DNA of 62,544 nt, counting the filler, from Jimgerdemannia flammicorona (taxonomy: Eukaryota), in assembly GCA_003990765.1 (NCBI GenBank). It is 3 parts of 3 records of this genome, joined end to end, with 100 filler letters (N's around TTAATTAATTAA, not from the genome) between each part and the next. Parts side by side here need not be neighbours in the genome. Positions count along the whole stretch, not along the records: positions 1 to 20,798 come from RBNJ01001587.1; 2 more parts are not named here. The stretch is one strand, 5' to 3'. Made by a program: the position numbers and the translations under genes. Positions within the stretch are counted from its first letter, which is position 1. Every line of letters begins with the position of its first letter. Positions 6,598 to 60,429 of this stretch are shown here, piece by piece. The notes beneath the pieces were generated by a model, which saw only the letters and a list, made by a program, of their open reading frames with translations, had not been told where the DNA came from and made no database searches.

Positions 6598-6600
6598 ACT

Positions 6601-6612: not shown

Positions 6613-7467
6613 ATTACCAGCCAAGAAGGCACCAAAGAACATACTCCTGAGAAGTTGGAACAAGACCAACCTTGGACAGGAGTAACCCCCAGAAACAACT
6701 GTAGATCCTCAAACCAGAGCCAGAGAAGCCCTTGCCATTAGGACTAGGTGGTACCAGGAAACCACAGATCCAAGGACCCACTAGATTGTAATTGACCAGG
6801 CTTACAAGGATCTATATCAGGCCTTTAGGACATACCACCCAGGACTTAGGAATATTGTTAGCCACCGTAGGTTCTACGAATTCCTCTGAGGACACATTGG
6901 AACCACTAGGACCCCAGAATCTACTGCTGCAGCCACTCAGGATTTTTTAGATTATATCACACCCTCTGCTGCAAGAGAAATAGCTGCTGAGTAGATAGCC
7001 TCTGACAGATATCATCACACCCCTATCAAGACCTCCCTCTACTACAGGCTAGTTGTATACTACACCTCTGCCATAACTAGGTATGAGAATGAGCAAGCAG
7101 GCCAACCATCCCCTACTGCTAAACAAAGAGCAGGCCCATCTACCCAGCCAGAGACTGATATCCTCTTTGAAGGACCTAGCCAGTATGAGGACACTCTATC
7201 TCATCAGAGAAGAGAGTCAGATGAAGACTCTACAGGTTACCAGCCTGATGATAGATAACAAGGAACAGCAGGCCTAGGAATTTACCAAGGAACCACAGGT
7301 CAAGAAGATCAGACCCCAGAACCAACCCAGCCACCTATACAGAGGTTTGGTTTGACTTGATATCCAGGAACCAAATAACCCCAAGTCATACAGCACCACA
7401 ACCCCACTAAGCAGAACAATCCTCAAGACAATCTACCCCAACAGGCCTACCACCAATAGTCAACACA

Positions 7468-10400
7468 ATGGTAGATACCAATATTGCAGCACTGACTACC
7501 AAGCTAGCAGCACTAGCAGGGATAGTAGGACAGATTGCTGAATAGAACAAGCCAACCAAGACCTTGCGAATCCTAATATTCATTGGAAAAAACAGTAACA
7601 TTGAAAACTTCATCAATGCAGTTGATACAGGCTACCAAGCAAACCAATGGAATAACAACCAAGTGCCTATAGGAATGCTCACCAATAACCACAACAACAC
7701 CCTTCAACAGCTGTTTGCCACATCAGCAGCACAAGTAGAAACAGTAGCCACATTCTTAACTGAAACAGCAGCCGAATTCTGGTATACCCTGGAACAACAC
7801 TCAGTAACCTGGGAAGTCTGCCCTCAAGTCAATGGACAAGTACCTGCCAACAATAGACCAGGTTGGGATGACTATGAAGCAGGCCCAGGACTCAAGGCCT
7901 TGCTACTGACCAAATTCTAAAATGCAGCCTACATATAAGAAACTTGGAACAAACTATTCCAGATGAAGTTCCACAAAAATGGCAAAGAGGACCTAGAGAC
8001 CTTTGCCACCAGAATAGATGCCTATCTCAAAACTGTAGGACTTACCTATCAGGAGAACAATTTGGCCATCAATGGTACCGGAGTCAACCATCTTTTTGCA
8101 GCCCTACCAGACTGGCTCACCCAGAAGATCAAGGAACAAGGTCTCCCCCAAGGATGCCCCCACTACTCATGGTGTTTTGCCCAAGTACAAAGAAGAGCCC
8201 ATGAAATCCTTGCTGTACAAGCTCCACAAAATCAAGAATACAAGAAGGATAACCAAGATAGGAGGAATCCTACCAGGAGAAATGATCAAAGGAATGATCA
8301 AAGATATGATCAATGGAATGATCAAAGGAACCAGTGAAATCCCGGAGGACCCAGACCTCCCACTGAGGATGAAAAGAAGCAGCTTCATGAAAAAGGATTG
8401 TGCTTCATCTGTAAGAAGGCAGGACACATCTCAGTCAAATGCCCTGAGAGGAGAAACAGATCAGGTGAACTCAGTAACCAGAACATTACTGTCATTGAAG
8501 AAGGTCCAGGGAAGAAGAACTCTGAGAATGTCATTAAAGTACAGAAAATATAGTACAAGGCTACCATCCCCACTAAGGCCCACCCAACTGATGCTGAATA
8601 TGAACTCTACAGTAGCCAAGATCTCACCATTCCACCAAGCACCAATGCTACAGTGTGAACAGGAATTGCAATGTAAGCTCCCAAAGGAACATACATCCGC
8701 CTTGCTGAGCAAAGCAGCCTAGCCAAAGAGTTCAATATTGGGCTAAGTGGAGGAGTAGTTGACTAAGAATTTACTGGCGAAATCTGTATCATCTTGTGAA
8801 ATTTTGGAGACACATCATTTGAAGTCAAAGCAGGCCAAAGAATTGCCCAAGCAATCATTGAAGAAATCCATCAAGATCTCACCATTGAAGAAGTCCCCGA
8901 ACTCTCCCAGACAGACTATGGCAAGAAAGGGTTTGGATCTACCAACAAACCTCCCAGTCAAAAGGTCACTACTATGAAGGAAGATGATGAAAACTGGTAT
9001 AAGAGAATTACAGATGGTTATGCACCATATGGATGATGCCCTCATTCTATTCAAATGTACTGCATGGAACATGTTGGTGAATGCCATGCATGTCTCTCCA
9101 AAGTTCTCAAAATTCAATCCGAGAAGTGTCAAGCCCAATAGACTGAGGAACCCCAACAAGACAACCCTCCTTGTGAAGGATGGGGAGAAACTGACTTTGA
9201 GGAGACTGACAGCAATTGGGACAACAATGAGGATGAAGAGCTCCACACTATCAAGAAGGAGGACAGTTGCATCAAGTTCACAGGCCAAGTCCACAGACAG
9301 AATGTCAATGTCTTGCTTAATAGCAGTGCTACTGGAAACTATATCAGCACTAAGACTGCGAAGAGGATTGGAGCCCAAAGCAGACCAGCTACTGAGAAAA
9401 GAAGTGTTACCTTCGGTGATGGCAAGACTATACCATTGACCACGATCTGTGAAGATCTCTTGCTCAAGATTGGCAAATATCAAGAGAAGTTGGACTTCAG
9501 CATTGTAGACCTCCCAGGACAAGACATTATCCTAAGAAAAGCCTGGTTGACCCAGCACAACCCAGATATCAACTGGAGAACCAATGAGGTTAACCTGACC
9601 CATGAAGACAGAAAGATCACCCTGATACCCCAGGAAGGTACCAACCACCAAGGAATTGAAATCATCTCTGCCATTCAAATGAAGAGACTCTCTCAAAAAA
9701 AGGAAAACACCTACTTTATCTGTACAGTACAAGAAGTCACTGAAGCTACAAGTAGCCCAATTCCAACAGCAGCTCAAGAACTGTTTGAAGAATTCCAAGA
9801 TGTATTCCAAGACCCCCAAGGACTTCCACCGAAGTGCCAAATCCAACATGAAATTGATCTTATTCCAGGATCTGAACCCCTATACAAGAGTATCTACCAA
9901 CTGGCCCAACCTGAGCTCAAGACCCTCAAGGATGAATTGATCAAACTACTGGCCCAAGGATACATTGAACCCAGCCACTCTCCATTTGGAGCCCCTATTC
10001 TATTTGTCAAGAAGAAGGATGGCTCTCTGCGAATGTGTATTGACTATAGAGCCCTCAACAAGATCACCATCAAGAACCAGTATGCCTTGCCTAGGATTGA
10101 TGAGTTGCTACACCAAATCTTCAAGGCCAAGACCTTTTCCCTACTAGATTTGTGAAATGGCTACCACCAGATTCTCATTGATGAGAAGGACATTGAGAAG
10201 ATAGCTTTTCAAACATGGTTTGGACACTACCAGTTCCGAGTCATGCCTTTTGGATTGACCAATGCACCAGCAACTTTCCAGTATCAGATGAATGACATCT
10301 TTGGACCACTCCTCAACATCTGTGTCCTTGTGTATATTGATGATATATGAATCTACAGTGAGACAGTAGAGCTACACTACACCCACCTCAGACAGGTACT

Positions 10401-12660
10401 GACTCTTCTGCAAGAACACCAGCTCTATGCCAAGATGAGCAAGTGTAAGTTCTATCAAGACCAGATCGAGTACCTAGAACATATCATCTCTGCTGAAGGA
10501 ATCATTGTGGATCTCTGAAAAGTATCAGCCCTCAAGGATATTCCTATCCCTACTACCCTCAAGCTACTCCAGCACTTTCTGGGTATTGCCGGTTATTATT
10601 AAAGGTTTATCTAAGGATACTCTGCTATTGCAGCTCCATTGACCAGCCTGGCCTGCAAAGGAGTGAACATCAAAGTTGAATGGACCCCCGAATGTACCTT
10701 AGCTATGGATCATCTCAAGAGACTCCTTACTGAGACCCTAGTACTAATTGCACCTGACTCTACCAGGCCATTCACCCTGACCACAGATGCCTCTGATATT
10801 GCTATTGAAGCAGTACTCAGCCAAGAAGACCACCCAGTGGCCTACCTTTCCCAAAAGCTCAAGCCAGCTGAGATCTGGTACACCACCCATAAGAAGGAGC
10901 TCCTGGCCATTGTTACTGCACTCCAGGAATGGTGCCATTTCCTCTTAGGACAACTATTTGTAGCCTATACTGATCACTATGCCCTATGGTATATTTACCC
11001 ACAACCTATGCTGATCCACAGACAAGCCCACTGGATAGAAATCATTGCCAACTTTGATATAGAAATCAAGTATATCCCAGACAAAACCAACTGTGTGGCT
11101 GATGGTTTCTCCAGGTATATGGAAGATGAACTTGTCTTCATGGTCGAAGTATTTGGAGACCTTACTCAAATGATCAAGGACAGCTACCAGCAAGACAGCC
11201 CCCTGATGAAATTCCTTCAATTCTGCCAAGACCCAGAGGCCGAGGTCCCAGAACCTATGAGGCAAATGGTCAAGAGATTCACTTACCATGATGGACTTAT
11301 CTACAGGGACCATAACAGAGTAGTTGTATCCAACAATGATACTCTGTGACTCAAGATCATACAGGAACTCCATAATACTTCTGCAGCAGAACACTTTGGT
11401 TTCGAAAAGACCTACAACCTCCTCTCAAGAGAATTCTACTGGCCAAAAATGACCAAGGACATCAAAGACTTTGTGGCCTCATGCAAGATATACCAAAGGT
11501 TCAAAAGTGGTAACAAGCTACCAGCAGGACTCCCACAACCCTTGTCTATTCCAAGCTACAACTGGGATCAGATTGCAATGGACTTCATTGTCTAACTCCC
11601 CAAGACCAAGGCAGGATGGGATGCCATCTTCATATTTGTGGACCGCCTAAGTAAACAAGCCCATTTTGTACCCATCAAGACTACTGCTACCGCACCAGAG
11701 ATTGCTGAGATTTTTCTCAATCAAGTATTCAGGCTACATGGCATGCCTAGCACCATTGGATCTGACCGAGATGCCAAGTTCACAAGCAACTTCTGAAAGG
11801 CTTTCTTCTCTCTCTGTGGAACCAAGCTGAAGTTCTCTACTGCCTACCACCCTCAGACCAACGGTCAAACCAAGTGAACCAACAGGACTCTCAAACAGAT
11901 GCTTAGCATCTTCTGCTGTTACAAGCAAAATGATTGGGACAAGTATCTAGCTCATGCTGAGTTTGCCTACAACAACAGTCAGCAAACCTCTACAAAGAAG
12001 ACTCCATTCTTTCTGAACCATGGTCAACGCTCAAGAACCCTGAGTACTACTGCAAAATCAGCAGTCCCAGCAGCCTAAGATCTGGCCAAGACCATTTCTG
12101 ACCTTATCCGAATGACAAGAGATGCTCTCATAGAAGCACAAGACTACCAGACCAAGTATGTGAATCCAAAGTGAAGAGAAGCCTCCTACAATATTGGTGA
12201 CATGGTCATGCTTAGAACAGACCACCTCCACCCAGACACCCTAGCACAACAACCAGCCAAGAAACTCTATGCTAGAAGAATTGGACCATACAAGATTGTG
12301 GAAAAAATCAGTGAAGTCAACTATAAGTTGCAACTTCCCCACAATGTCTGAGTACACCCAGTATTCCATATCAGCCAATTGGTGGACTACCATGAGAACT
12401 CATTTCCCGAGCATATAGTTCCCCCACCACCCCCAATTAGGATCAATGATCATGAGGAATTCGAAATTGAGGAAGTACTTGACCACAAGGTCTGCAAATA
12501 TCCCAAAACAGTCAAGCAGTTTTTCCTGATCAAGTGGAAGGGTTACCCCACCCATGATGCCATCTGGAAAAAAGAAGAAGCCCTGAAAAATTCATGCAAA
12601 GCCCTCCAGGACTACATGGAAACACTCACTCTCCAGCAAAGAAAGGAACTGCAGCTCTAA
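7468..12660 (+). pseudogene. A1 gag-pol in a single frame: gag-CCHC-dUTPase(~8533-8943)-Cys/His module(8995-9093)-PR-RT-RH-IN-chromodomain
   Basis: ORF pieces 7564, 7963, 9313, 10639 and 12379 share one frame and are broken only by stops. [77 protein letters not shown]. Confidence 0.92.
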
Positions 12661-13302
12661 GTACTGAAGCACATCATGAGCAGAAGGATACTATATATTT
12701 TATCCAGAAATATATAATACTAAATATTGTGAAAAAAGGAATACTATGGATAACCAACAAGGAGATACTCAAGCAAAGGACAATCTAGTACAGTACAGCA
12801 AAACACATTTGAACAACTCCATTTCATGCCATCTGTATCATCTCCGCTGGATGATGACAGATGCTTCATATAGAACTTAGGAAAGCCGACAATGTCGAAA
12901 CCAGTCTAAGTCCATCTACATAACAGATATTGTTACTAGGAATTGCCTCGGATTATAAGAAAAGTCTATTTCCGAGAGGTTTGAACCCCCAGCCATAACA
13001 ATGGGAGCCCTCACCCTAGACAAGAATGGCCAGTCCTCACAAATGTGCCAACCAGACAAAAAAAAAGTGGACCAAGACCTGTTAACCCTGTGTAACCACA
13101 GCTATGAGTGATGATATCTTTGAAATCAGGATTTTTTCATGTGACCAGCACATTCCCTGCTTAAAGTACAGGTCACACACTTTGCCAGAAAGTATGACCA
13201 AAGGAAGGTTACACCAGAGAGGTGAATAAGTATAAATACCCAAGACAAGAATACCCTGCAACCCTCATTCCCCTCTCCTCACAAAGAAAAGATAAGATAA
13301 GA

Positions 13303-13757
13303 ATGCCCACTACCCACAGCCAAGCTACCCACTACCAAACTTCCTGCAGTAGCCAGCCCCTCCCAATCCAGGTTGACTGCCTCTTTGGACACATCCAGGT
13401 TGCTATCCAAGGAAGGAACCACTGCTCAGAGGCCCTTAACCTCTCCAGCCAGGACCTAGGACATTATGTCCTTAACTGCCATAAAGTCATTGAAAGAACC
13501 TACCTTACCACCAGCCGCCTAGAGATCTGACATAAATACAAGATTGGCCATCAACTCCTCCAACAGGCAAAGGACCTGCCCATGGACCAAATCTCTGATT
13601 GGACCCACCTGGACAGGAATGAGCAAAGACTTGGCAAGAAGGCCTATTGAATTATGTGCCATGCACTCTTTGCAATCCCCAACCTCAACTATGTCCAACT
13701 GAAAGACTTCCAGAATCTCTCTTTCTTCGAGGTTGACAAACTAGAAATCAAGGTAGC
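13303..13757 (+). pseudogene. A1 3' accessory ORF of unknown function, N-terminal half (cut by A2 insertion)
   Basis: Homologous to 14550-15380; ends at ..DKLEIKVA directly against the A2 LTR. Confidence 0.8.
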
Positions 13758-14538
13758 TGTAATAACTCTCACTTCTACCCCTCTCTTATCCTTTGGATAA
13801 TTAGAGAAGTAGACTATTACTTAGGGACTTAGTACACAATGTGTACCAAGAAGCCTTCAGTTTGAGGAAGCGCTCGCTTATAAGTAGTTGTAGTGGCAGT
13901 GCCTTATCTTTCAAAGGTCTTTCTAGTTTGCCTTCTGTTTCAAAGGTCTTTCTCTTGTGCCCTATTTCGAGGGTCTTGTTCTTTGCTGTGCACAGACTGA
14001 ATTCGCCTTGAAATTCAGGTTCAATGGGTTTACTTAAGTCTTTGGGGATTTATATACCAGTCTCAGTTCTGGCAGAAGTTAGCTAGGCTTCTGGAGTTTA
14101 GTCAGAAACACTAGAGTCACTTAGGTGTCATTACTAAGACTCAGGGGAATGTGTGTATATGGGGGAGACTTGATTCTTGTATCAAGGACTGAACTAAAAC
14201 TGCTTTATTTTGGATGGAAACTGGGGAGTATTTATACAAGTTGGTCCGCGATTTCTGACTAAGTATGAGTGACTAATTTGGTAACTATAATGAGGTTTGT
14301 GATTGTGACCTTTGTCAGGTGGTTTTTGGTAAAGAATATCTTTGTGATCAGGACCTCAATTACTAGGCAATGATCAGTAGCTGTGGCAACTGTTGCTGTG
14401 GCGCCGATTATTGGGGATAAGCTGGATATCATTTTTTCTGTGTCGTTTCACATCATTCGTTCGTTTGTATACCATGCTCGATCGTATGATGACATCATCG
14501 CCGGGTCACGTGATCACTTGTCATTCATATCTATTACA
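13758..14538 (-). repeat. 3' LTR of A2 (781 bp)
   Basis: TGTAATA/TATTACA termini, preceded by a PPT, and matches 5805-6597. Confidence 0.92.
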
Positions 14539-14549
14539 TCCTTCCCCCC

Positions 14550-15380
14550 TTAGAAATCAATGTCCCCATTGATTGAGAAATTGAGAACCAGGGGAGAGAA
14601 AGGTGGGGCATCCTCCTCAGGGTTATTACCATCTTCTTCAGGGGCAGGGGGGGTGGTGGTTGCAGATGGCTTGCTGTCCAGGATGGAGAAGTCAATGAGA
14701 TCTGCAAATGGTTCTTGCATTGGAATAGGTGCTGGTGTAGGGGTTCTCCATCTGATGCGGTTGGGGCCATCCAAGTAGGGCTCTTGATCTTCATGCCTGG
14801 GAATATCCATTCAGATAGGTGGTCCTTCAAAGAGATCAGAGAGACCTTGGAGCCATTGGTCAGGGTTGTCATTCAGGAGGGGGCTCCAGTAGGGTTTGCA
14901 GTCAGTAGACTTGAGGGCAATCCAGGAGTTGGCTTCTTGAGCGACCTTGACTTCTAGGGCATCAATCTTAGGGAAAGAGAGGTTCTGGAAGTCCTTCAGT
15001 TATAAGTAGTTGAGGTTGGAGATCGCAAAGGGTGCATGGCGCATGATTTGATGGACCTTCTTGGCAAGTCTTTGCTCATACCTGTCTAGGTGGGTCCAAT
15101 CAGAGACTTGGTCCATGGGCAGGTCCTTCGTATGTTGGAGAAGCTGGTGACTGATTTCGTATTCATGCCAGATTTCTAGGTGGCTAGTAGCAAGGTAGGC
15201 CCTTTCGATAAGTTCACGGTGGTCAAGCACATACTGTCCTAGGTCCTGGCTGGAGAGGTTAAGGGCCTCTGAGCGGCGGTTCCTTCCTTGGATAGCAACC
15301 TGGATGTGTCCGAAGAGGCGGTCAACCTGGCTTGAGAGGGACTGGCTATGGTGGGCAGTTTGGTGGCAGGTGGCAGGCAT
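14550..15380 (-). pseudogene. A2 3' accessory ORF, ~276 codons, unknown function (two internal stops)
   Basis: ORFs 15000-15461 and 14550-14810 are in one frame; the stops TAA and TGA are compatible with CAA/CGA decay; the final stop abuts the PPT; homologous to the D LTR ORF. Confidence 0.8.
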
Positions 15381-16024
15381 TCTTGTCTTGTCTTTTCTTT
15401 GTGAGGAAAAGGGGATGAGAGTTGTGGGGTATTCTTGCCTTGGGTATTTATACTTATTCACCTGTCTGATGTGACCTTCCTTTGGTCACACTTTCTGGCA
15501 AAATGCATGACCTGTGCTATAAGCGGAGCATGTGCTGGTCACATGAGAAAATCCTGATTTCAAAGAACTCGTCACCTATAGTTGTGGTTACACAGGGTTT
15601 ACAGGTCTTGGTCCACTTTTTTATTGTCTGGTTAGCGCATTTGCGAGGACTGGCCATCCTTGTCTAGGGCGAGGGCTCCCATTGTTATGGCTGGGGGTTC
15701 AAACCTCTCGGAAATAGACTTTTCTTGTAATCCGAGGCAATTCCTAGTAATAATATCTGTCACATGGATGGACTTAGACTGGTTTCGACATTGTCGGCTT
15801 TCCTAAGTTTCACATGAAGCATCTGTCATCATCCAGCGGAGATGACACAGATGGCGTGAAATGGAGTTGTTCAAATGCATTTTGCTGTACTATACTAGAT
15901 TGTTCTTTTGCTCGGGTATCTTCTTGTTGGTTATCCATAGTGTTCCTTTTTTTGCAATGTTTGATATTATATGTTTCCAGATAAAAATATGTGGTATCCT
16001 TCTGCTCGCTGTATGCTCCTATAC

Positions 16025-19000
16025 TTAGAGCTGTAGTTCCTTCCTTTGCTGGGGGGTGAGTGTCTCCATGTAGTTCTGGAGAGCTTCGTGTGCATTCCTC
16101 AGGGCTTCTTCTTTTTCCCAGGTGGCGTCATGGGTGGGGTAACCCTTCCACTTGATCAGGAAAAAGCACTTGACTGTTTTAGGATACTTGTGGACCTTGT
16201 GGTCAAGTACTTCCTCAATTTCGAATTCCTCATGATCATTGATCCTAATTGGGGGTGGTGGTGGAACTGTATGCTCAGGGAATGAGTTCTCAAGGTAGTC
16301 CACCAATTGGCTGATATGGAATACTGGGTATACTTGGATATTGTGGGGAAGTTGCAACTTGTAGTTGACTTCGCTGATTTTTTCCACAATCTTATATGGT
16401 CCAATTCTTCTAGCACGAAGTTTCTTGGCTGGTTGTTATGCCAGGGTGTCTGGGTGGAGGTGGTCTGTTCTAAGCATGACCATGTCACCAATATTGTAGG
16501 AGGCTTCTCTTCGCTTCAAGTTCGTGTACTTGGTCTGGTAGTCTTGTGCTTCTATGAGAGCATCTCTTGTCATTCGCGTAAGGTCAGAAATGGTCTCGGC
16601 CAGATCTTGGGCTGCTGGGACTGCTGATTTCGTGGTAGTACTAGGGATCCTTGGGTGTTGACCATGGTTCAGGAAGATTGGAGTCTTCTTTGTGGAGGTT
16701 TGCTGACTGTTGTTGTAGGCAAACTCAGCATGGGCTAGGTACTTGTCCCAATCATTTTGCTTGTAACAGCAGAAGATGCTAAGCATCTGTTTGAGAGTCC
16801 TGTTGGTTCACTCGGTTTGACCATCAGTCTGAGGGTGGTAGGCAGTAGAGAACTTCAGCTTAGTTCCATGGAGGGAGAAAAATGCCTTCCAGAAAATGCT
16901 TGTAAACTTGGCATCTCAGTCAAATACAATGGTGCTAGGCATGCCATGTAGCCTGAATACTTGGTTGAGAAAGATCTCAGCAATATCTGGTAGTGTAGCA
17001 GTGATCTTGGTGGGTGCAAAATGGGCTTATTTACTTAGGCGGTCCACGAATACCACGATGGCATCCCATCCTGCCTTGGTCTTGGGTAGTTGGACAATGA
17101 AGTCCATCACAATCTGGTCCCAATTGTGACTCGGGATAGGCAAGGGTTGCAGGAGTCCTGCTGGTAGCTTGTTACCACTTTTGAACCTTTGGCACATCTT
17201 GCATGAGGCTACAAAGTCTTTGATATCCTTGGTCATCTTTGGCTAGTAGAACTCTCTTAAAAGGAGGTTGTAGGTCTTTTTGAAACCAAAGTGTCCTGCT
17301 ACAGAAGTGTCATGGAGTTCCTGCATGATGTTAAGTCACAGAGTATCATTGTTGGATACAACCACTCTGTCATGGTCCCTGTAGATAAATCCATCACGGT
17401 AGGTGAATCTCTTGGCCATCTGTCTCATGGGTTCTGGAACCTCGGCCTCTGGGTCTTAGCAGAATTGGAGGAAATTCATCAGGGGGCTGTCTTGCTGGTA
17501 GCCATCCTTGATCATCTGGGTGAGGTCACCAATTACTTCGACCATGAAGACAAGTTCGTCTTCCATGTACCTGGAGAAACCATCAGCCACATGGTTGGTT
17601 TTGCCTGGGATATACCTGATTTCCATATCAAAGTTGGCAATGATTTCCATCCAGCGGGCTTGTCTGTGGGTCAGCATGGGCTGTGTGTAAATATACCACA
17701 GTGCATGGTGATCAGTGTAGGCCACAAATGGCTGTCCTAGGAGGAAATGGCACTATTCCTGAAGTGCAGTGACAATAGCCAGGAGTTCCTTCTCATGGGT
17801 GGTATACCGAGTCTCAGCTGGCTTGAGCTTCTGTGAAAGGTAGGCCACTGGGTGGTCTTCTTGGCTGAGCACTGCTCCAATAGCAATGTCAGAGGCATCT
17901 GTGGTCAGAGTGAATGATCTGGTAGGATTAGGTGCAATTAGCACTGGGGCCTCGGTAAGGAGTCTCTTGAGATGGTCCATAGCCAGGGTGCATTTGGGGG
18001 TCCATTCAGCTTTGATGTTCACTCCTTTACGGGCCAGGCTGGTCAATGGGGCTGCAATAGCAGAGTATCCTTGGATAAATCTTTGGTAATAACCGGCAAT
18101 ACCCAGAAAGTGCTAGAGTAGCTTGAGGGTAGTAGGGATAGGGATATTCTTAAGAGCTGATACCTTTTGGGGGTCCACATTGATACCTTCAGCAGAGATG
18201 ATGTGTCCCAGGTATTCAATCTGGTCTTGATAGAACTTACACTTACTCATCTTGGCATAGAGCTGGTGTTCTCACAGGAGAGTTAGTACTTGTCTAAGGT
18301 GAGTATAGTGTAGCTCTATGGTCTCGCTGTAGATTAATATATCATCAATATACACAAGGACACAGATGTTGAGGAGCAGTCCAAAGATGTCATTCATCAG
18401 ATACTGGAATGTTGCTGGTGCATTGGTCAATCCAAAAGGCATGACTCAGAACTGGTAGTGTCCAAACTGTGTTCGGAAAGCTGTCTTCTCAATGTCCTTC
18501 TCATCAATGAGAATCTGGTGGTAGCCATTTCGCAAATCTAGTAGAGAAAAGGTCTTAGCCTTGAAGATTTGGTGTAGTAACTCATCAATCCTGGGCAAGG
18601 CATATCGGTTCTTGATGGTGATCTTGTTGAGGGCTCTGTAGTCAATACACATTCGCAGAGAGCCATCCTTCTTCTTGACAAATAGGATGGGGGCTCCAAA
18701 TGGAGAGCAGCTGGGTTCAATGTATCCTTGGGCCAATAGTTTGGTCAACTCATCCTTGAGGGTCTTGAGCTCAGGTTGGGCCAGTTGGTAGATACTCTTG
18801 TATGGGGGTTCAGATCCTGGCATAAGATCAATTCCATGTTGGATTTGGCACTTAGGTGGAAGTCCTTGAGGATCTTGGATTATATCTTGGAATTCTTCAA
18901 ACAGTTCTTGAGCTTCTGTTGGAATTGGGCTACTTGTGGCTTCAGTGACTTCTTGTACTGTACAGATGAAGTAGGTGTTTCCCTTTTTTTGAAAGAGTCT

Positions 19001-20379
19001 CTTCATTTGAATGGCAGAGATAATTTTGATTCCTTGGTGGTTGGTACCTTCCTGGGGTGTCAGGGTGATCGTTCTGCCTTCGTGGGTCAGGTTAACCTCA
19101 TTGGTTCTCCAGTTGATGTCTGGGTTGTGCTGGGTCAACCAGGCTTTTCCTAAGATAATGTCTTGTTCTGGGAGGTCTACAATGCTGAAGTCCAGCTTCT
19201 CTTGATATTTGTCAATCTTGAGCAAAAGGTCTTCACAGATCTTGGTCAATGGTACAGTTTTTCCATCACCAAAGGTAACACTTCTTTTCTCAGTAGTGGG
19301 TCTGCTTCGGGCTCCAATCCTCTTGGCAGTCTTGGTGCTGATATAGTTTCCAGTAGCACTGCTATTAAGCAAGACATTGACATTTCGTCTGTGGACTTGG
19401 CCTGTGAACTTGATGCAACTGTCCTCCTTCTTGATGGTATTGAGCTCTTCATCCTCATTGTTGTCCCAATTGCTGTCAGTCTCCTTGAAGTCAGTTTCTC
19501 CCCATCCTTCACAAGGAGGGTTGTCTTGTTTGGGTTCCTCAGTCTGTTGAGCTTGGTGCTTCTCGGATTGAATTTTGAAAACTTTGGAGAGGCATGCATG
19601 GCATTCACCAACATGTTCCATGCAGTACATTCGAATGGAATGAGGGCATCGTCCACATGGTGCATAACTATCTGCAATTCTCTTGTACCAGTTTTCATCA
19701 TCTTCCTTCATGGTAGTGACCTTTTGACTGGGAGGTTTGTTGGTAGATCCAAACCCTTTCTTGCCATGGTCTATCTGGGAGAGTTTGGGGACTTCTTCAA
19801 TAGTGAGATCTTGATGGATTTCTTCAATGATTGCTTGGGCAATCCTTTGGCCTGTTTTGACTTCAAATGAGGTGTCTCCAAAATTTCGCAAGATGACACA
19901 GATTTCACCAGTAAATCCTTGGTCAACTACTCCTCTGCCTAGCCCAATGTTGAACTCTTTGGCTAGGCTACTTTGCTCAACAAGGCAGATGTATGTTCCT
20001 TTGGGAGCTTGCATTGCAATCCCTGTTCACACTGTAGCATTGGTGCTTGGTGAGATGGTGAGGTCTTGGCTGCTGTAGAGATCATATCCAGCATCAGTTG
20101 GGTGGGCCTTAGTGGAGATGGTAGCCTTGTACTATATCTTCTGTACTTTGATGACATTCTTGGGGTTCTTCTTTCCTGGACCTTCTCCAATAACAGTGAT
20201 GTTCTGGTTACTGGGTTCGCCTGATCTGTTTCTCTTCTTGGGGCATTTGATGGATATGTGTCCTGTCTTCTTACAGATGAAGCACAATCCCTTTTTACAG
20301 AGCTGCTTCTTCTCATCCTCAGTGGGAGGTCTGGATCCTCTGGGGTTTCGCTGGTTCCTTTGATTATATCTTTGATCAT
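16025..20379 (-). pseudogene. A2 gag tail-dUTPase-Cys/His module-PR-RT-RH-IN-chromodomain
   Basis: [31 protein letters not shown], RNase H and integrase motifs; C-terminal chromodomain; all pieces in one frame. Confidence 0.92.
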
Positions 20380-20798
20380 ACTGGCTCACTCAGAAGATCA
20401 AGGAACAAGGTCTTCCCCAAGGATGTCCCCACTACTCATAGTGTTTTGCCCAAGTACAAAGAAGAGCCCGCAAAATCCTTGCTGCACAAGCTCCACAAAA
20501 TCAAGAATACAAGAAGGATAACCAAGATAGAAGAAATCCTACCAGGAGAAATGATCAAAGAAATGATCAAAGGAATGACCAAAAATTGTTCCAACTTCAG
20601 GAGTGTGTTCTTTGGTGCCTTCTTGGCTAGTAATCTGCTGCTACCAAGTTGTAATAACTCTCACTTCTACCCCTCTCTTATCCTTTGGATAATTAGGGAA
20701 GTGGACTATTACTTAGGGACTTAGTACACAATGTGTACCAAGAAGCCTTCAGTTTGAGGAAGCGCTCACTTATAAGTAGTTGTAGCAGCAGTGCCTTA

Positions 20799-20898
20799 NN
20801 NNNNNNNNNNNNNNNNNNNNNNNNNNNNNNNNNNNNNNNNNNTTAATTAATTAANNNNNNNNNNNNNNNNNNNNNNNNNNNNNNNNNNNNNNNNNNNN
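20799..20898. other. Artificial contig linker / gap
   Basis: N44-TTAATTAATTAA-N44, which gives stops in all six frames. Confidence 0.97.
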
Positions 20899-21789
20899 CC
20901 CCCCCTCTCTCTCTCTCTGCTGTGTGGAACGCCAATTGATTATCATTACTTAAATATTCTACCCTCTTTTGGGCTTCACAGAAAAATTCTTCTCCGAAAT
21001 CGAATGTTGTGTTAGATACGATGAGGTTGTGGAGGCCGCTGAGGAGGTAGAGATGGAGCTCCTGCTTACATGATAGACGTCCTGCGGTTCCGCCGTCTGC
21101 GAATAGTTGGAATAGCTAAGCCGCGTCGCTGATGTTGAGGTTGTGGAGAGGTTGAGATGGCGTTCCTACCTATAAGACAGACGCCCCGCGGTGTCGCCTT
21201 CGGCGAATGGCTGCGAATTGATGGAATAGCAAAGCCGCGTTGGGTGCGAGTCGCTGATACTGAGGTTGTGGAGGCCGCCGAGGAGGTAGAGATAGCGTTC
21301 CTGCCCATAAGACGGACGCCCTCCCCCTCTGCCGAACCGGATGCACTTTTCTTTTTCTGCGCGTAACGGGCCCTATCCTCCTCCGCCCGGGTCTGCAAGA
21401 TGCGTCTTCTTCCTCCTCTTACTCGGCGATTGGAACTGGTCGTCCACGCCGGGTGCAAGCCGCTTGTTCCTGAACGCGCGGTGATTATCGACAAGCCATT
21501 CCTCATCATCATCCAGGACGGCTGCTGCCCGGGCGCCGCGCGGATCTCCAGGTCGGCGTCGCGGGATCGTCTAAAATGATTGTGAATGATGTGATCACCT
21601 CTGAATTGAGTGTCGAGTGTTCTCGGATAGCACCCATGATGTTGCGAACTATATGCAAAGTTGAACAAAGCACGTTAAACGCGAAACAACCCAACATACA
21701 ATCCCAAGAACTCGCCCACTACCACCACCACGCGCCTATCGACAGCCCAATCCCCCTTTCTCCTCAAACAAAATAACGCCAACACTTAC

Positions 21790-22960: not shown

Positions 22961-23126
22961 GACCATGACCGTGTCCGAAGAATACTATAGGATAAGATGG
23001 CCTGTGAGTATAAGATGTGGTGAGTGTCTGAAAAAGGTCTTAAGTGAAGGGTCGTAGGGTAAGCTGTCAAGGTTGAAAAGTGAGGTATTATTCCTATTTG
23101 ACGCGTCAAATGCAAACAACGGAAAG

Positions 23127-23170
23127 GGTTTCAGCCCTTACCAAAGGGCCTCATCAGTGCCCAGACCGGC
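23127..23170 (-). ncRNA. Degenerate type III hammerhead ribozyme motif
   Basis: GCCGGUC-UGGGCA-CUGAUGA-GGCCCUU(UGGU)AAGGGCU-GAAA-CC. The core and stem II are intact, stem I has collapsed, and stem III has only 3 bp. Confidence 0.6.
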
Positions 23171-25760: not shown

Positions 25761-26126
25761 TCACTCAAATTCCCAGGCTTCTACAATTTGTATTTCCTTA
25801 TACTGTGAGATTTGTATCATTACATTCTTCCAATGTTGTCTGTTGACATATCCAAAGTCTCCTGGAGTTACTCCTTGGAAATGGGCTATGGCTGACTCAT
25901 CATCTTTGAATAACTTGTGCACTCTTTTTGCAATTGTGATCTGAATATAGGAGAGCTGACATTCTCTGATCCAGTCTTCTTTTCCCATCTTCGGTCTTGA
26001 ATTCAGTAGCTGTCCCAACTTGAAGTATTCCTGGAACTCAGTTTGGTTCTGGTAGGCCTTGAAATGTAAGATTCGTGATAAGTGTGTTTGCACTATACTC
26101 TGGATACTGTCAAAGGATTCTTCCAT
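25761..26126 (-). CDS. B1 3' accessory ORF, 121 aa, open; distant homologue of the A/D accessory protein
   Basis: QEYFKLGQLL..IAKRVHKLF..AIAHFQGVTPGDF aligns with QEYEIGNLL..TAKKIHQIF..LIPNLEYVRVSDF; located between integrase and PPT. Confidence 0.7.
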   Translation of the reverse strand: MEESFDSIQSIVQTHLSRILHFKAYQNQTEFQEYFKLGQLLNSRPKMGKEDWIRECQLSYIQITIAKRVHKLFKDDESAIAHFQGVTPGDFGYVNRQHWKNVMIQISQYKEIQIVEAWEFE

Positions 26127-26202
26127 TGTTGGTGGCTCAGTGGAACACCACTGTCTTTCAATGGCTCACTGGGCTGTACTAGTAATTCTGAGGGCAGTAG
26201 TA

Positions 26203-27405
26203 TTACTTTGTTGACTGGTCATAATACTTCTTGAGTTGGTTTCAGTAGATGGTAGTGGAGATGATTGTGCCTGAGAGTTTTTGTAGCCAAAAGGTGGTTC
26301 CTTTTATATCTTGCACAAGGTAAGGTCCTTCCCACTTGGGCTCCAGTTTTCATGATCATGAGGCTTCTACCATGTTCCAATACATCAGGACTTTGTCTCC
26401 TATCTTGATAATCTCCAGGAGTTTGTGGGTTTTTTCTGCATTCTTCCATTATAGTGCCTGTGCCTTCATTATGTAATCCTTAGCCTTCTTCCTGATTTGG
26501 TGTAGTCTCCGTATTTCTCCATCCACATATCTCCATATAGCATCTCCATTGGATGATAGGATTTCTCGAGAACTTTCTTCTCTGAACAGCATCTCCCAAG
26601 GGGTAAAGTGGGTACTTTGTGATCTGATATTCTGGAGAGCAGATAATGCTATTGGCAAATAGTGATCCCAGTTTTCATAGTTATCACAGATCTTGGCGAT
26701 AACATTCTTAAGGATCTTGTTGGTCTTTTCTGCTTGTCTGTTTCCTTGAGAGTGATAGGCTGTGGTCCAAATGTACTGGATCTTATACTTCTTGTAGAGA
26801 ATCTCAAAGAACTGGTTCATGAATTCTGTTCCTCTATCTGTAGTTACTTGCATTGGGGTCTTGAACCAGCAGATGATTTCTTTGTGGAAGAAATCAGCGA
26901 TTGACTGTACATTGGCTTCCTTGAGGGGTCCTGCTTCTATCTACTTTATAAAAAGGTCTACAATGACAATGATATATCGGTTACCAGTCAGGGTCAAGGG
27001 TAGAGGGCTGATTACATCCATTGCTATGTGGGCAAATGGTACTGGTTCTATATGTACTGATCCTGGGGCTTGGTTTTGTTGGTCTTATTTCTGTTTCTGG
27101 TATTTGTTGCAGGTTCTAACAAATTGTCTGATATCTTTATCCATTCCTGGCCACCATATCATTCTTCTTGTCTTGTTGTATGTATTTATTCCTCCTAGAT
27201 GACCGAGTTCATATACTGATTTCATTGCTTGCTCCTTCTTGTGTTCTGGTATGACTAGTAGTTTTCCTTTCTTCAGTATTTGTCCATCAGTTTTGAATTG
27301 TTTCCATGTTCTGTTAATAATCATTTGTGTCTATTCTTCCAGATATTGGAGCATCTTTTGCTGTCTCAGATATATGATGATTTCATAGTAAAGTTCCTTA
27401 TTCAT
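26203..27405 (-). pseudogene. B1 integrase in its own reading frame (MNKELYY...; decayed HHCC, DDE core, GPY tail)
   Basis: The ATG at 27405 overlaps the RNase H-frame stop (CATGAATAA); TDRGTEF and KWEGPY motifs. Confidence 0.85.
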
Positions 27406-36384: not shown

Positions 36385-37898
36385 TGTCATGTAGTGGTCG
36401 CTGAGTCCTTCAAATATGCCAGATTCTCTTCAAGATACATATATCTCTTAGACTAACTCAAGTTTGTTATAAGCAAGTTCTTATTGGAGTACCTTCCCAA
36501 GGTCTTATAGTCCTCAAACTTCTTATCTTTAACTGTCTTGTTATCTCTTAGATTGCTTGCAAGAAAGTGTGTATAAGTGAAACTGGAACTTGACTGACTT
36601 TATTCCAGAGGAAATAAGAGAGGTATTTATACAAAATATAATTCAATGGTTGCTAAGATATAAAGCTAAATATAAATTTCAATAACTAAAACTACTAAGT
36701 TCCAGGGCTGGTATTATTTAGTATTACATCAAAATGCCAGTGCTGGAACAATTTTGTGTCACCTCAGAATACTGGTGCTGGCATTATCCAGTATAACAAA
36801 GAACTTAGAGTAGAAAGTTCAGGACCATGGGAGCTTCATCATCATCATCACTGAAGGAGATGAGGTCCATGAATTCGTTGTGCAGGCCGCATGTCTCATG
36901 TACTTCGTTGTCATGTGTTTCATATACTTCGTGTGCTTTGGGTATGTCACACGGGATGATGTCATCAATGACATCATCACATTCAGCTGTGGCGGGGAAA
37001 TTGGGAACAAGGTCTGAAGCTCTCCAGTCTATGAGGTTCTCTTCCACAAAATAAGAAACAAATGTGGTATCTTGGGGAGATCTAACCTGGATGCTTGGGC
37101 CTTGGAATACTGAGATCAATCCTTGCAGGAATTGGTCTGGGTTGTCCTGAAGGATAGGGTGCCAGAAGTCTTCTACTTCTTCACTATTGAGGGTGATGAT
37201 AGACTGGGCTTCTGTGGCTACTCTGGCTTTTAGTGCATTGATACGGCAGGATGACAGATCTCTGAAGTCTGAGACTCTAACATACTCCAAGTTGGAGATC
37301 GACTATGGTGTATGTCTGAAGATCTGATGGATCTTCTTTGCTGTCCTTGCCTTATGTAGGTCCATGGGAGTGGCATCTTGTAGCTCTTGAGGGCTGGCCT
37401 GTGGGAACTCCTGGCAGAGGAGGTTTCCTATTTCGTATTCCTACCACATTTGAAGGCATTCAGTAGCAATGGTGATCCTTGTTTCCATTTTGCAGTGGTA
37501 GAGAATGAAGTGATAGGGGTCTGTGGTACCTAGGTTGACAATAGGAGTCCTTCTTGAGTGGGTCCTCATGGCTCTTCTGATGTCTTGGAACATCCTTTTC
37601 TCGACCGAGATACCTTGATGATTCCTTGACCTTGAGGTTTGGCAGACAGCAGGCATTTTGTTTATAGTAAGTCTTTGAGCTATTTTGGGATTGGTAGTTC
37701 TTATTGGTTACTGCTACTGCAGTTCCTTGATCCTTTTTTTATATTCTTCAGGATGCTCATGCTGTAGTCACAATGACTCACAGTTGGTCATCATTGCTCA
37801 TCTTATATGCTATATGATCTTCTTGTACTCCGATCTGGTGGCTTGTAAAGAAAGGCTGTCTCCTATACTAATGTCATCATTCTGGGGTCACCATTATA
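36385..37898 (-). mobile_element. Solo LTR of family D (1514 bp) with 4-bp TSD TTAT
   Basis: Reverse complement of 50188-51658 from end to end; TTAT at 36381-36384 and 37899-37902; no PBS or PPT adjacent. Confidence 0.92.
36805..37656 (-). pseudogene. LTR-encoded accessory ORF in solo LTR (~283 codons, internal stops)
   Basis: ORF pieces 37441-37656 and 36805-37290 are in one frame and match 50429-51250. Confidence 0.8.
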
Positions 37899-49940: not shown

Positions 49941-50428
49941 ACATATGATAAAATCAGTCTTTAACTGTATTTGTGACTATTACCTGTATGTGGCAGAATA
50001 CCCCCTTCTACATGACGTCAATTTCAATTTGGATTCTTGAGAACTGTTCGCTTATATTTATTATATAAAATAAACCCATCTCATACTCATTTTAGACATT
50101 TGATTTACACATATTATTTTGAGATTAATAACTTGATACAGTTAATATAAAGAAAATATAATTAGTATAGATAAAATCATTATATATTGTAATGGTGACC
50201 CCAGAATGATGACATCAGCACAGAAGATGGCCTTTTCTTGCAAGCCACCAGATTGGAACACAAGAAGATCATACAGCATATGAGATGAGCAATGATAACC
50301 AACTTGAGTCATTGTGATCACAGTACAAGTATCCTGAAGAATATAAAAGAAGGATCAAGGAACTGCAGTAGCAGCAACCAATAAGAACCACTAATCCCAA
50401 AATAGCTCAAAGACTTACCACAAATGAA

Positions 50429-51250
50429 ATGCCTGCTGCTTGCCAAACCTCAAGGTCAAGGAACCACCAAGGTATCTCAGTCAAAGAAAGGATGTTCCAA
50501 GACATCAGAAGAGCCACGAGGACCCACTCAAGAAGGACTCCTAGTATCAACCTGAATACTGCAGACCTCTATCACTTTATCCTCTACCACCATGAAATAG
50601 AAACAAGGATCACCATTGCTACTGAATACCTCTAAATGTAGCAGAAGTATGAAATAGGAAACCTCCTCTGCTGGGAGTTCCCACAGGCCAGCACTCAAGA
50701 GCTACAAGATGCCACTCCTATAGATATATGTGAAATAAGGACAGCTAAGAAGATCCATTAGATCTTCAGACATGCACCATGGTTGATCCCCAACTTGGAG
50801 TATATTAGAGTCTCAGATTTCAGAGACCCATCATCCTGCCATATTAATGCACTAGAAGCCAGAGTGGCTACAGAAGCCCAGTCTACTATCACCCTCAATA
50901 GTGATGAAGTAGAAGACTTCTGGCACCCTATCCTTCAGGACAACCCAGACCAATTCCTACAAGAGTTGATCTCAGTATTCTAAGACCCAAGCATCCGGAT
51001 TAGATCTTCCCAAGACCCCACATTTGTCTCCTATTTTGTAGAAGAGAATCTCATAGACTGGAGAGCTCCAGATCTTATTCTCGATTTTTCTGCTGCCGAA
51101 CGTGATGACATCATTGACAATGATGTTGTCCTGTGCAATATTGAAGTATGCGAAATATGTGACCTATATGACAAATTTACAGATCTCATCTCCTTCAGTG
51201 ATGATGATGATGAGGATAAAGCCCCCATGGTCCTAAACTTTCTGCTCTAA
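50429..51250 (+). pseudogene. LTR-encoded accessory ORF, 273 codons, 5' LTR copy
   Basis: One frame from ATG to TAA, broken only by stops; TATAAAAG ~85 nt upstream. Confidence 0.8.
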
Positions 51251-51784
51251 GTTCTTTGTTATACTGGATAATGCCAGCATCAGTATTCTGATATGATACT
51301 GAATTATACCAGCATCCTGAACCTGTACAATCATCAGTACTGACCCTGGAACTTAGTAGTTTTAGTTATTGAAATTTATATTTAGCTTTATATCTTAGCA
51401 ATCATTAAATTATATTTTATATAAATACCCCTCTTATTTCCTCTGAAATAAAGTCAGTCTTCTCAGTACAATATACACACTTCCTTACAAGCAATCTAAG
51501 AGATAACAAGACAGTTAAAAATAAGAAGTTTGAGGACTATAAGATCTTGAAAAGGCACTCCAATAAGAACTTGCTTATAACAAACTTGAGTTAGTCTAAG
51601 AGATATATCTTGAAGAGAATCTGGCATATTTGAAGGACTCAGCGACCACTATGTGACAACTTGGTACCCATTGGCTGGTAATTCAAGATGAATCTCTCAC
51701 TTTCAAGCTAAAAAATGAATAACCCCCACAACAACTACCCTGACTACAAGAGTCACCCCTGCAATAATTCAAGATAAGATAGAA

Positions 51785-56931: not shown

Positions 56932-57537
56932 GAGAAGCAAAATATAATGACTGCCCATGAGGTTCTAGTCTATGAATCATAACAGCATGTCCCATGACTA
57001 GTAGGCTATCTGTCTGGACCATTCTCTAAGAGATACAGCACTGGCAACTACTCATCTATGAGACTTTCAAAGTCAGAGGAGTTCAAACCATCAACTGATT
57101 GGTCAAGATCAGAATCAGGCCCTTGCTCTATATGAAGAGAGTGACCCTTCACCATCATGCCAAAATACAAAGAGAAGATGCCAGCCCATAAATATCACTT
57201 TTTGACCCCTTGCCAGAGGTTATGAGATCAGCAAATTTTTCAGGACTGGACTAATGAATAAGGATGCTCAGGAAGATCCTTATTCAGGAGGAAGATGTAA
57301 TGGTGATTCCAGAATAATGACATCAGCATAGGAGATGACCTTTCCTTGCAAGCCACCAGATCAGAACACAAGAAGATCATATGGCATATGAGATGAGCAA
57401 TGATGACCAACTGTGAGTTATTGTGACCATAGTACAAGTATCCTAAAGAATATAAAAGAAGAATCAAGGAACCACAGTAGTAGTAACCAACAAGAACCAC
57501 CAATCCCAAAATAGCTCAAAGACTTACCACAAATGAA

Positions 57538-58359
57538 ATGTCTACTGCCCACCAAACCTCAAGGTCAAGGAACTACCAAGGTATCTTAGTTGAAGAAAGG
57601 ATATTCCAAGACATCAGAAGAGTCATGAGAACTTACTCAAGAAGGACTCCTAGTGTCAACCTGGGTACTGTAGACTCCTATCACTTTATCCTCTATTACT
57701 ATGAAATGGAAATAAGGATCACTATTGCTACCAAATGCCTCCAAATATGGCAGGAGTATGAAATAGAAAACCTCCTCTGTCGGGAGTTCCCACAGGCCAG
57801 CACTCAAGAGCTATAAGATGCCACTTCTATGGATATACATGAAATAAGGACAGCTAAGAAGATCCATCAGATCTTCAGGTATGCACCATGGTTGATCCCC
57901 AACTTGGAGTATGTTAGAGTCTCAGATTTCAGAGACCTGTTATTCCATCATATTAATGCACTAGAAGTCAGGGTGGCTACAGAAGCCCAGTCCACTATCA
58001 CCCTCAATAGTGATGAAGTAGAAGACTTCTGGTACCCTATCCTCCAGGACAACCTAGACCAATTTCTGCAAGAGTTGATCTCAGTATTCCAAGGCCCAAG
58101 CATCTGAATTAGATCTCCCCAAGACCCCACATTTGTCTTCTATTTTGTAGAAGAGAACCTCATAGACTAGAGAGCTCCAGATCTTATTTCTGATTTCCCC
58201 ACCACTGAATGTGATGATGTCATCACCGATGATGTCATCCTGCGCAACATCAAAGTATGTGAAATGCATGACCTATATGACAAATTTGCAGATCTCATCT
58301 CCTTCAGTGATGATGATGACAAGGATGAAGCCCCCATAGTCCTGAACTTTCTACTCTAA
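57538..58359 (+). pseudogene. LTR-encoded accessory ORF, 273 codons, 3' LTR copy
   Basis: Same length and frame as 50429-51250; its stops fall at different codons from those in the other copies. Confidence 0.8.
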
Positions 58360-58370
58360 GTTCTTTATTA

Positions 58371-58470
58371 TACTGGATAATGCCAGCACTAGTATTCTCA
58401 TGTAATACTGGATAATGCCAGCACTGGTATTCTCATGTAATACTGGATAATGTCAGCACTGGTATTCTGA
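58371..58470 (+). repeat. 35-bp tandem repeat (about three copies) in the 3' LTR of D
   Basis: TACTGGATAATGCCAGCACTRGTATTCTCATGTAA at 58371, 58406 and 58441; single copy in the 5' LTR. Confidence 0.85.
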
Positions 58471-60429
58471 TATGACACTAAATTATACCAGCATCCTGAA
58501 CCTATACAACCATTAGTACCAACCATGGAACTTAGTAGTTTTAGTTATTAGAATTTATATTTAGCTTTATATCTTAGCAACCATTGAATTATATTTTATA
58601 TAAATACCCCTCTTATTTTCTCTGAAATAAAGTCAGTCTTCTCAGTGCAATATATACACTTCCTTGCAAGCAATCTAAGAGATAACAAGACAGTTAAAAA
58701 TAAGAAGTTTGAGGACTATAAGACTTTAGGAAGGTACTCCAATGAGAACTTGCTTATAACAAACTTGAGTTAGTCTAAGAGATATATCTTAAAGAGAATC
58801 TGGTGTATTTGAAGAACTCAGTGACCACTACGTGACAATATGCAATTATATATAATAATAAAGATAATTGATATATTGAGCTATATGTATACTTCTGAAA
58901 TCTAAGCTACATATTTATTTATCCTTGAACTGAGCTATCAGACTCTCATAATACTCTTCTTATATAACTATTATTGTTCAGCTTACTAGCAATACTAATG
59001 TGATGAGAAAATTTAAGAGTTATTTAATATTATTATATCAGAGCAAGTAGAAGAGCTTATGTATAGATATTTGTTAAAAAGTGAGCAAAGATACAGAAAT
59101 TATCATGAAATATTTCAAATCACTGTAAAGTATCTCTTTTTCCATACCGAACTCTTTCTCCAAATAGTCTCAAGCAAGAATCCACCTCTCTCTATATGTA
59201 CAATCTCACTCCATACAGCTATTAGTATCACAATTGCCTTATTGCTCCATCACTCCAATCACTGTAGATGTACTATTTTAAACTGTACAAATGGAGCTTT
59301 GAAGAGAAAAAATGATGTACAAAAAGTAACCACCTTGCCACATATGCTTCAATTTTATGAGGTTTTTCATTTCCAACCTCATTAATAGATGTTGAGCAGG
59401 GCCCGTTGGATCAGATAAATATATATATTGAGTTTCTGTTAGCAGAGGTACAGTCAGAGGGTCGCTTCATCTAGATGAGATGACGCAACCATGTTGATGA
59501 AATACGAAATACGTTTTAGACGAAAAACATTAGAGATCTTCTATGGCAATAGCTGGGAAAACCCCAGAAGCTCACGAAACTCTCTTTCTGACTGCTAGTG
59601 GAGCATCCGTCTGCCACACACGAACCCCGTACGCAACGTCAAGCGCCAATATCTGGGTATTCTCCACCCTTCCCCCCCATACAAATCCCGTCCTCCCACT
59701 AGGGCGTTGTGGATATCTTCTTGATGACAGGTATGTCACTCCAAGACAAATCATCCTCCGCTGCCAACCCAGAATCCTCTGGTGCACGACGAACCTAATA
59801 GATTTCAAGGTACGAACATAAGTAAAGACCTGGAGAGCAGTAAAGATAATTCCCACGTTTCATATTGTGCTTGTCGAGGGTGTTTGCTGGGTTGTTGCTG
59901 GTTTCCATGACGTCGTTTGGTTGAGTACAGTGATGAAAACATTGAACATCACGAGCCAAAACAAGGTGAATGCTTGGGTCGCACGATGGGTAGCAGATCG
60001 AGGTAGATAAGCAGCCATAGATTTGAGTTTCAGTGAGCCGTGGCTGTAGATTATGCGACAATGCCAAAGGATGGCAGTGTATATGTCAAAATAACATCTG
60101 ATAGGCATGGAGTCACCTTTCCTGAAACTCTACTGTACTGCACCAAAACTCCTGAAGGCATCGTCATACCTCCAACCCCCATGCAATTCTGACCAATTCG
60201 TTTGAAACCAATCACTTATCTCTTCATCCCCCAAGCATGTCGTTGCTCAGATCACTGAATGGCCCCATCGGAAACTCGGGCCGTCTCAAACGTATGAGAC
60301 GCACGACACCGCATGGCACATTCTCGCTGCAGGACCACCTTCAGTCAATGACACATAGCAAGAGTTTGTGCGTTTTCCCACGACAATGAAAGATGGGTTG
60401 CGTGCAGACGGATAGGTATTTCTACAGAA

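Follow-up and report, generated by a model that had tools for sequence, protein, structure and literature searches.

Three gypsy families (A, B and D) in a 62,544-nucleotide (nt) window of the Jimgerdemannia flammicorona genome carry one and the same accessory protein family at three different positions, and the gene has probably moved between a chromovirus and a non-chromovirus lineage. The window is the whole stretch of DNA that was analyzed; it consists of parts of three records joined end to end, and coordinates are positions within it, not within single records. It is transposon-rich. Family A is represented by two copies, A1 (plus strand, about 5844-13758) and A2 (minus strand, about 20800-13758), the B element spans 31959-25252 on the minus strand and the D element 50188-58837 on the plus strand. 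The accessory open reading frame (ORF) of A2 runs from the ATG at 15380 to the TAA at 14552-14550, with stops inside at codons 127 and 190. Every accessory copy in the window is dead. The accessory ORFs, three of them inside long terminal repeats (LTRs), are as follows.

14550..15380, minus strand: A2 accessory ORF, 276 codons with two premature stops; the stop codon directly adjoins the polypurine tract (PPT)
13303..13758, plus strand: A1 accessory ORF, 71-73% identity to A2; truncated by the A2 3' LTR
25761..26222, minus strand: B accessory ORF, 153 codons with one stop; ATG in overlap with the final 20 nt of integrase
50429..51250, plus strand: accessory ORF in the D 5' LTR, 273 codons, four stops; TATAAAAG at 50342
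57538..58359, plus strand: accessory ORF in the D 3' LTR, 273 codons, three stops; TATAAAAG at 57451
36805..37656, minus strand: accessory ORF in a D-family solo LTR, 283 codons, two stops; TATAAAAA 87 nt upstream of the ATG

The relationship between A and D is evident from direct comparison. A tblastn search within the window aligned the A2 ORF to the three D LTR copies with 37-38% identity over 213-241 amino acids (aa) (E 6e-46 to 2e-39), and a multiple alignment gave 37, 39 and 37%. The alignment against shuffled controls, a check proposed in a preliminary description of this DNA, was significant: the score was reached by 0/1000 shuffles in each of the three pairs (z 62-72). The same description listed ordered motifs common to A and D. 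All are present in the quoted order, but the D-side quotations are composites of several D copies: no single window copy contains WQEYEIGNLL or TAKKIHQIFRHAPWLI verbatim, the solo LTR and the 5' LTR copy both have WHPILQDNPDQFLQ and PMVLNF, and FADLISF is found in the 3' LTR copy. B had been named as a member without evidence. It is weakly similar to single A/D copies (z 2.7-5.5; 20, 0, 3 and 0 of 1000 shuffles reach the score), but its membership holds at the profile level, where the A/D profile matched the B profile at 61% (E 8e-5). A fourth, metagenomic subfamily, E (about 167 aa), matched B at 97% (E 6e-11) and A/D at 79% (E 1.5e-5). Each of the three profile pairs exceeded 40/40 block-shuffled controls and a reversed control; the reversed B control scored 26 compared to 37 for the real profile. 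These profile-level links imply that A, B and D carry one family with a core of about 100-130 residues in common, as had been claimed for three element families at three positions. The last 120 residues are peculiar to A and D.

Database searches retrieved five A/D-type and nine B-type proteins, with 10 matches among 1.84 billion representatives and 19 with a wider profile; all are unnamed or 'hypothetical', save one spurious match (P0029, lancelet TERF2, E 5e-4 over 35 profile positions), which was discarded. One relative, P0026, combines A/D and B motifs. The idea that the core is an abundant hypothetical-protein family of the Glomeromycota was not borne out, since the 10 matches include no named fungal protein. 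Pfam gave nothing above the cut-off for the window accessory proteins or for sets of 14 or 59 members, except for a chromodomain in P0030. The best PHROGs match had an E-value of 0.008, the best matches to PDB sequences 0.15 and 1.3, and a phage tblastn search returned nothing. Pattern matches were confirmed in 0/65, 0/21 and 0/48 cases on viral contigs, in 0/21 and 0/69 cases in prokaryote genomes and in 1/175 cases on metagenome contigs. In the ESM Atlas, P0006 remained below 0.9, and P0015 scored 0.95 against clusters without a name and 0.92 against one in which 15% of the members carry HTH_3; these values are leads only.

The accessory ORF is retained in 2/2 A copies (one truncated), 3/3 D LTRs and the single full-length B element. 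Its ratio of nonsynonymous to synonymous substitution rates (dN/dS) indicates purifying selection, with values of 0.22-0.55 in 9/9 pairs: 0.22 for A2 versus the related locus L001, 0.26 and 0.30 for the D LTRs versus the solo LTR, and 0.45 and 0.55 for the two closest pairs, which are also the most decayed. For comparison, reverse transcriptase (RT) gave 0.10-0.14 in two closer pairs (A1-A2 and B-D). Together with stop-free relatives in metagenomes, these ratios identify a real, selected gene.

A further common feature is found ahead of the start codon. The preliminary description had placed TATAAATACC at 13231 and suggested an internal promoter. The motif is real; it lies in A1, 72 nt before the ATG at 13303, and A2 has the same at 15452.

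15445..15452, minus strand: TATAAATA, 72 nt upstream of the A2 ATG
13231..13238, plus strand: TATAAATA, 72 nt upstream of the A1 ATG
26301..26308, minus strand: TATAAAAG, 86 nt upstream of the B ATG, within integrase codons

TATAWAWR occurs 72-87 nt upstream of the ATG in 7/7 loci, which represent four lineages (A, D, B and L001), against a background of 0.006-0.014 per 40-nt window. A scan of the sense strand over 5830 nt in A2, 7158 nt in A1 and 5787 nt in B found no TATAWAWR other than the accessory one. In B this motif lies within integrase codons; D lacks an ORF at this place, and its codons here are synonymous ones that form no TATA. A decayed B-like copy retains its TATA at 24744. Position and rarity of the motif thus support the proposal that the accessory gene has a promoter of its own, a candidate at the sequence level. 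L001 belongs to the A type, both by protein identity (58% with A2, 39-40% with D) and by its junction of stop codon, PPT and LTR, which matches A2 (E 1e-6). Its leader is nevertheless in common with 3/3 D copies (0/500 shuffles each), the A2 leader being like neither, and a stretch of 29 nt covering leader and start codons is 90% identical between L001 and D.

The accessory ORF is always in the sense of pol, between integrase and the 3' LTR in A1, A2 and B and in the unique 3' region (U3) in D. The surrounding features are as follows.

14539..14549, minus strand: A2 PPT
13758..14538, minus strand: A2 3' LTR, TG...CA ends; own TATA at 14236
16025..20398, minus strand: A2 gag end and pol, dUTPase-PR-RT-RH-IN-chromodomain (chromovirus; PR, protease; RH, RNase H; IN, integrase), interrupted by stops
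50188..51658, plus strand: D 5' LTR, about 1.47 kb; its own TATA at 51420, downstream of the ORF
57296..58837, plus strand: D 3' LTR; element D is bordered by a 4-nt target-site duplication
36385..37898, minus strand: D-family solo LTR; a 4-nt target-site duplication sets its limits

Since the LTR TATA (51420) is downstream of the accessory ORF, the D ORF is assigned to U3. With LTR limits fixed from the 4-nt target-site duplications, it lies entirely within U3 in 3/3 D LTRs, starting about 240 nt into the LTR and stopping about 170 nt short of the LTR TATA. The B ORF terminates 41 nt ahead of the 3' LTR, and in A and L001 the ORF follows a spacer and has its stop codon on the PPT. Two database proteins extend the series. 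In P0072 (E), a B/D-type integrase, with 44-45% identity to those of B and D and 30-32% to that of A, runs in frame into the accessory domain, and in P0030 a chromodomain stands in frame ahead of it. Both are single predicted proteins, and gene-calling or frameshift products are conceivable, but they still reveal the neighbourhood. If these two fusions are counted, there are four positions: fused in frame to a preceding chromodomain or integrase, in overlap with the end of integrase, ahead of the PPT, and inside U3.

The distribution of the two forms does not follow the phylogeny of the elements. As had been claimed, the architectures differ: A has the order dUTPase-PR-RT-RH-IN-chromodomain, and its primer-binding site (PBS) is unlike those of B and D, which resemble one another. 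B and D have the order PR-dUTPase-RT-RH-IN without a chromodomain, with about 60% pol identity and 67% DNA identity. A chromodomain at the A integrase C-terminus is recognized by Pfam (Chromo, E 1.3e-12 within 16025-16435), and this C-terminus has no match to B or D. The ranking of identities is reversed between the two genes: integrase identity is 0.65 for B-D and 0.27-0.32 for A-D, accessory identity 0.19 for B-D and 0.38 for A2-D. In an integrase tree of five rows, D joins B (98/98), and A+D is rejected by the approximately unbiased (AU) test (p-AU 0.010). In an accessory-core tree of 19 representative rows out of 59 (106 columns), D joins A, and B+D+E is rejected (p-AU 0.027). A larger tree with 52/59 rows, for which seven short ones were left out and a long-branch warning applies, recovered A+D+P0026 at 96/90, joined by the chromodomain-linked P0027 at 94/88. 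The incongruence between accessory and pol trees (integrase being used for the latter) and the two AU tests favour the movement between lineages that had been proposed from the motifs. B and E retain the short form right behind integrase; D lacks it there and has the long, chromovirus-type form in U3, and a profile search of D from integrase to PPT found no B/E-type accessory remnant. This makes D the odd one, and the simplest history would be the capture of a chromovirus-type cassette into its U3. From what is established for retroelements, such a capture would be expected to take place by a template switch between co-packaged RNAs close to the PPT; both direction and route would follow from this reconstruction.

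A history without transfer, which we consider rather improbable, would have an ancestor of A, B, D and E with two paralogues, or with a slowly evolving long form, followed by differential loss. In favour of this history, members of the family are found among chromoviruses and non-chromoviruses alike, and A-D synonymous sites are almost saturated in both the accessory gene and RT (synonymous divergence 1.8-1.9), so that any transfer must be old. Under paralogy and loss, however, it is difficult to explain why A-D accessory identity (38-39%) equals A-D RT identity (39%) when the accessory gene is faster in every closer pair (A1-A2, 73% versus 93% for RT; B-D, 19% versus 68%). The 29-nt L001-D stretch at 90% would be hard to preserve across the full age of the split, and no element with both forms was seen. 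Transfer between lineages is therefore the history that we regard as probable from these sequence comparisons.

What the protein does can be approached through its core and its tail. The core model is confident (predicted local distance difference test, pLDDT, 85-97 across residues 61-160), with a helical core at about residues 47-150. In a structure search, ParB-family DNA-binding domains made up 6/50 listed matches (ranks 1, 2, 4, 8, 40 and 43). Among the matches listed, 11/11 rows starting at model residues 64-72 were helix-turn-helix (HTH)-type proteins, including Raf1, ScpB, ChrA and QscR, which we take to be of this type. From the model, there is about an even chance that the core contains an HTH nucleic-acid-binding unit. 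The Z-scores of the ParB-family matches (PDB 3vwb, 3mky, 3mkw, 1zx4, 1r71 and 8qa8) are within noise. Sequence does not support a specific ParB/KorB identity: comparison with one ParB-type protein, SopB, gave 0.09% with hhalign and 28/925 in a shuffle test, and none of the 59 members has a ParB-type Pfam domain. A look-alike pentapeptide in SopB was dropped, as the alignment was not significant. A first model (B, 10 rows) reached a pLDDT of 55 with generic helical matches only, and Foldseek with a second look yielded nothing clear (a DUF3102 protein at rank 17, E 0.4).

The acidic tail is disordered and contains two short conserved hydrophobic motifs; in A/D proteins the last 60 residues have a net charge of -6 to -17 and a pLDDT under 50. 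The conserved DLI[DS]F described earlier is part of a broader [DN]LIxF, present in 13/13 A/D-type tails (twice in P0024) and absent from 4/4 B proteins, P0026 and P0030. E proteins have F[IV]DF in the acidic tail in 17/17 cases examined. E tails (P0042, P0044, P0045 and others) end in an acidic stretch with a near-terminal Trp (few with Phe), and B proteins end similarly, an arrangement that presumably resembles the Arp2/3-binding acidic motif of WASP-family proteins. At the other end, the first 60 residues are basic in D-type proteins (+2 to +8 in five full or near-full proteins), neutral in A2 (0) and acidic in E (-3 to -7). No transmembrane segment was found in 17 proteins by a crude count (at most 10-13 hydrophobic residues per 19-residue window), and no membrane-type Pfam match was above the cut-off. 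Among 15 weak Pfam matches of the 59 members, there was no retroviral transactivator or Tas-type family.

By analogy with foamy viruses, the accessory protein may be a nuclear regulator of element transcription, a reading that we favour tentatively and put somewhat below an even chance. The core would bind element DNA, and the tail would recruit a host factor, switching on or protecting LTR transcription. Not very likely, in our estimation, is a post-transcriptional or anti-silencing factor, which would export genomic RNA in a Rev- or CERV-like manner or shield the element from host DNA methylation. CERV of Cer1 sets a precedent as an RNA-export factor encoded by an LTR retrotransposon (PMC10309623), the D-type N-terminus is basic, and the elements are CpG-depleted (observed/expected 0.06-0.21 compared to 0.99 in 21000-23900), which makes methylation pressure likely. 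However, neither sequence nor fold matches such factors, and the basic N-terminus is common to neither A2 nor E.

Still less likely is a cytoplasmic adaptor, whose core would bind the particle or the RNA or cDNA of the element. Its [DN]LIxF tail would attach to clathrin or a different coat protein and direct particles through the endomembrane system, for instance from one nucleus of an unseptated hypha to another. The motif is constant in A/D-type tails, E has its F[IV]DF, and A2 has LIDF, which is the non-classical clathrin box of Ack (PMC3038647) and is also of the type of GTSE1 motif B (10.1101/750034). On the other hand, the classical consensus, L-hydrophobic-x-hydrophobic-[DE] (10.1101/750034), fits 5/13 A/D tails and misses 8/13, including all four window copies with a tail (0/4). 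Since B proteins, P0026 and P0030 lack the motif, it cannot be the core function of the family, and the best structural neighbours of the core are, weakly, DNA-binding domains. Any function beyond these three is quite unlikely.

As a whole, the Ty3/gypsy third gene is best explained as a self-contained cassette of TATA, a leader of about 50-60 nt and the ORF. A short mRNA would very likely run from the internal TATA to the 3' LTR. D would have acquired the long form by template switching near PPT and U3 during reverse transcription of co-packaged RNAs, and LTR synthesis would then copy the U3-borne ORF to both ends. In its boldest version, which we consider doubtful, a swappable regulatory cassette, placed at four positions, would encode a ParB/KorB-type HTH protein whose tail recruits host factors. 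This protein would be a Tas-like transactivator from outside the retroviruses, and every solo LTR with the gene in U3 would be a free-standing expressed gene able to act on other elements in trans.

Some additional features of the elements were recorded. A decayed A-related element at 516-820 (minus strand) has about 305 nt of A's spacer in common (77%) and then enters LTR-like sequence, where the accessory profile has no match; it is possibly a copy without the cassette. The A2 5' end (20377-20800) is rearranged, with an LTR end and PBS followed by a 206-nt inverted gag piece and an N gap, and about 1.4 kb of gag is gone; an assembly artefact is possible. Of the 11 sequencing runs listed for this DNA, ten are soil metagenomes, and none is listed as RNA. 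In one run, X6, which is RNA only by a guess, one contig spans 14530-15403 and most of pol is uncovered (14/30 bins), but contigs cannot reveal the start, strand or level of an RNA, so that this cover is no sign of a transcript. About 355 nt (56940-57295) separate the D integrase stop from the LTR; a frame in this interval is partly open but has no relation to the accessory family. The decayed B-like copy, with the TATA at 24744, is a strongly decayed, AT-rich integrase end (24125-24950) with a faint trace of the B ORF (independent E-value 0.33). In B (27460-27380) and D (55735-55800), RNase H closes with a stop, and integrase has its own ATG about 20-25 nt further on in another frame. The first 50 nt of the LTRs (14538-14490 in A, 50188-50220 in D) contain 8-mers like the cAMP response element (CRE) in both and an E-box-like site in A, all candidate host factor sites. 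Elsewhere, 2067-5400 and 41700-43300 contain G-rich non-LTR-type RT fragments (RVT_1 E 4e-14 at 3582-4115) and a skewed stretch with long ORFs without Pfam match. The region 21000-23900 is GC-rich, CpG-undepleted and probably host, and Pfam recognizes none of its three longest ORFs.

Most extra ORFs of LTR retrotransposons are orphans without an assigned function, and here one family can be traced across chromovirus and non-chromovirus lineages. In searches of open-access text, neither this family nor any gene encoded in the U3 of a fungal gypsy element was found described. Extra conserved genes between pol and the 3' LTR are described as additional ORFs (aORFs) of plant Ty3/gypsy elements, such as the nuclear gene23 of Grande with its own promoter (PMC7264820), and dUTPase-bearing fungal chromoviruses are annotated with an 'add. 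ORF of unknown function' (PMC2864245). The accessory ORF is an aORF of the sense type: like these it is an extra gene 3' of pol retained in most copies, but it lies on the pol strand in A, B and D, unlike the antisense aORFs of the Boty, Grande and Retand type, and lacks the transmembrane segment of an envelope (env)-like ORF3. It matches no described family in sequence, and in D it sits within U3. Bdelloid rotifers already provide a case of third ORFs shared between lineages: in their dUTPase-bearing gypsy-like elements, ORF3s recur in unrelated lineages as recognisable enzymes or env-like proteins, said to be expressed typically from spliced RNA (PMC5408684); the accessory protein, in contrast, matches no known type and has a TATA of its own. 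Foamy-virus tas/bel (PMC7828637) and the Oikopleura Tor env (PMC4402516), an envelope glycoprotein gene, are expressed from internal promoters and likewise represent 3' genes with a promoter, here a candidate, inside the upstream coding or spacer region. Sequence matches to retroviral accessory families are missing, and transactivation would be by analogy only.

The sag gene of mouse mammary tumour virus and lentiviral nef are ORFs in or overlapping U3. As in the sag layout, the whole D ORF is in U3, ahead of the LTR TATA, and is duplicated with the LTR; unlike sag and nef, it has no membrane anchor and no sequence match to them, and the same gene is found outside the LTR in A and B. A positional series with a candidate promoter in each position, a confident core model and stop-free relatives suited to expression make two questions testable: the role of non-env third genes and the way in which an ORF enters the LTR, a layout known from complex retroviruses.
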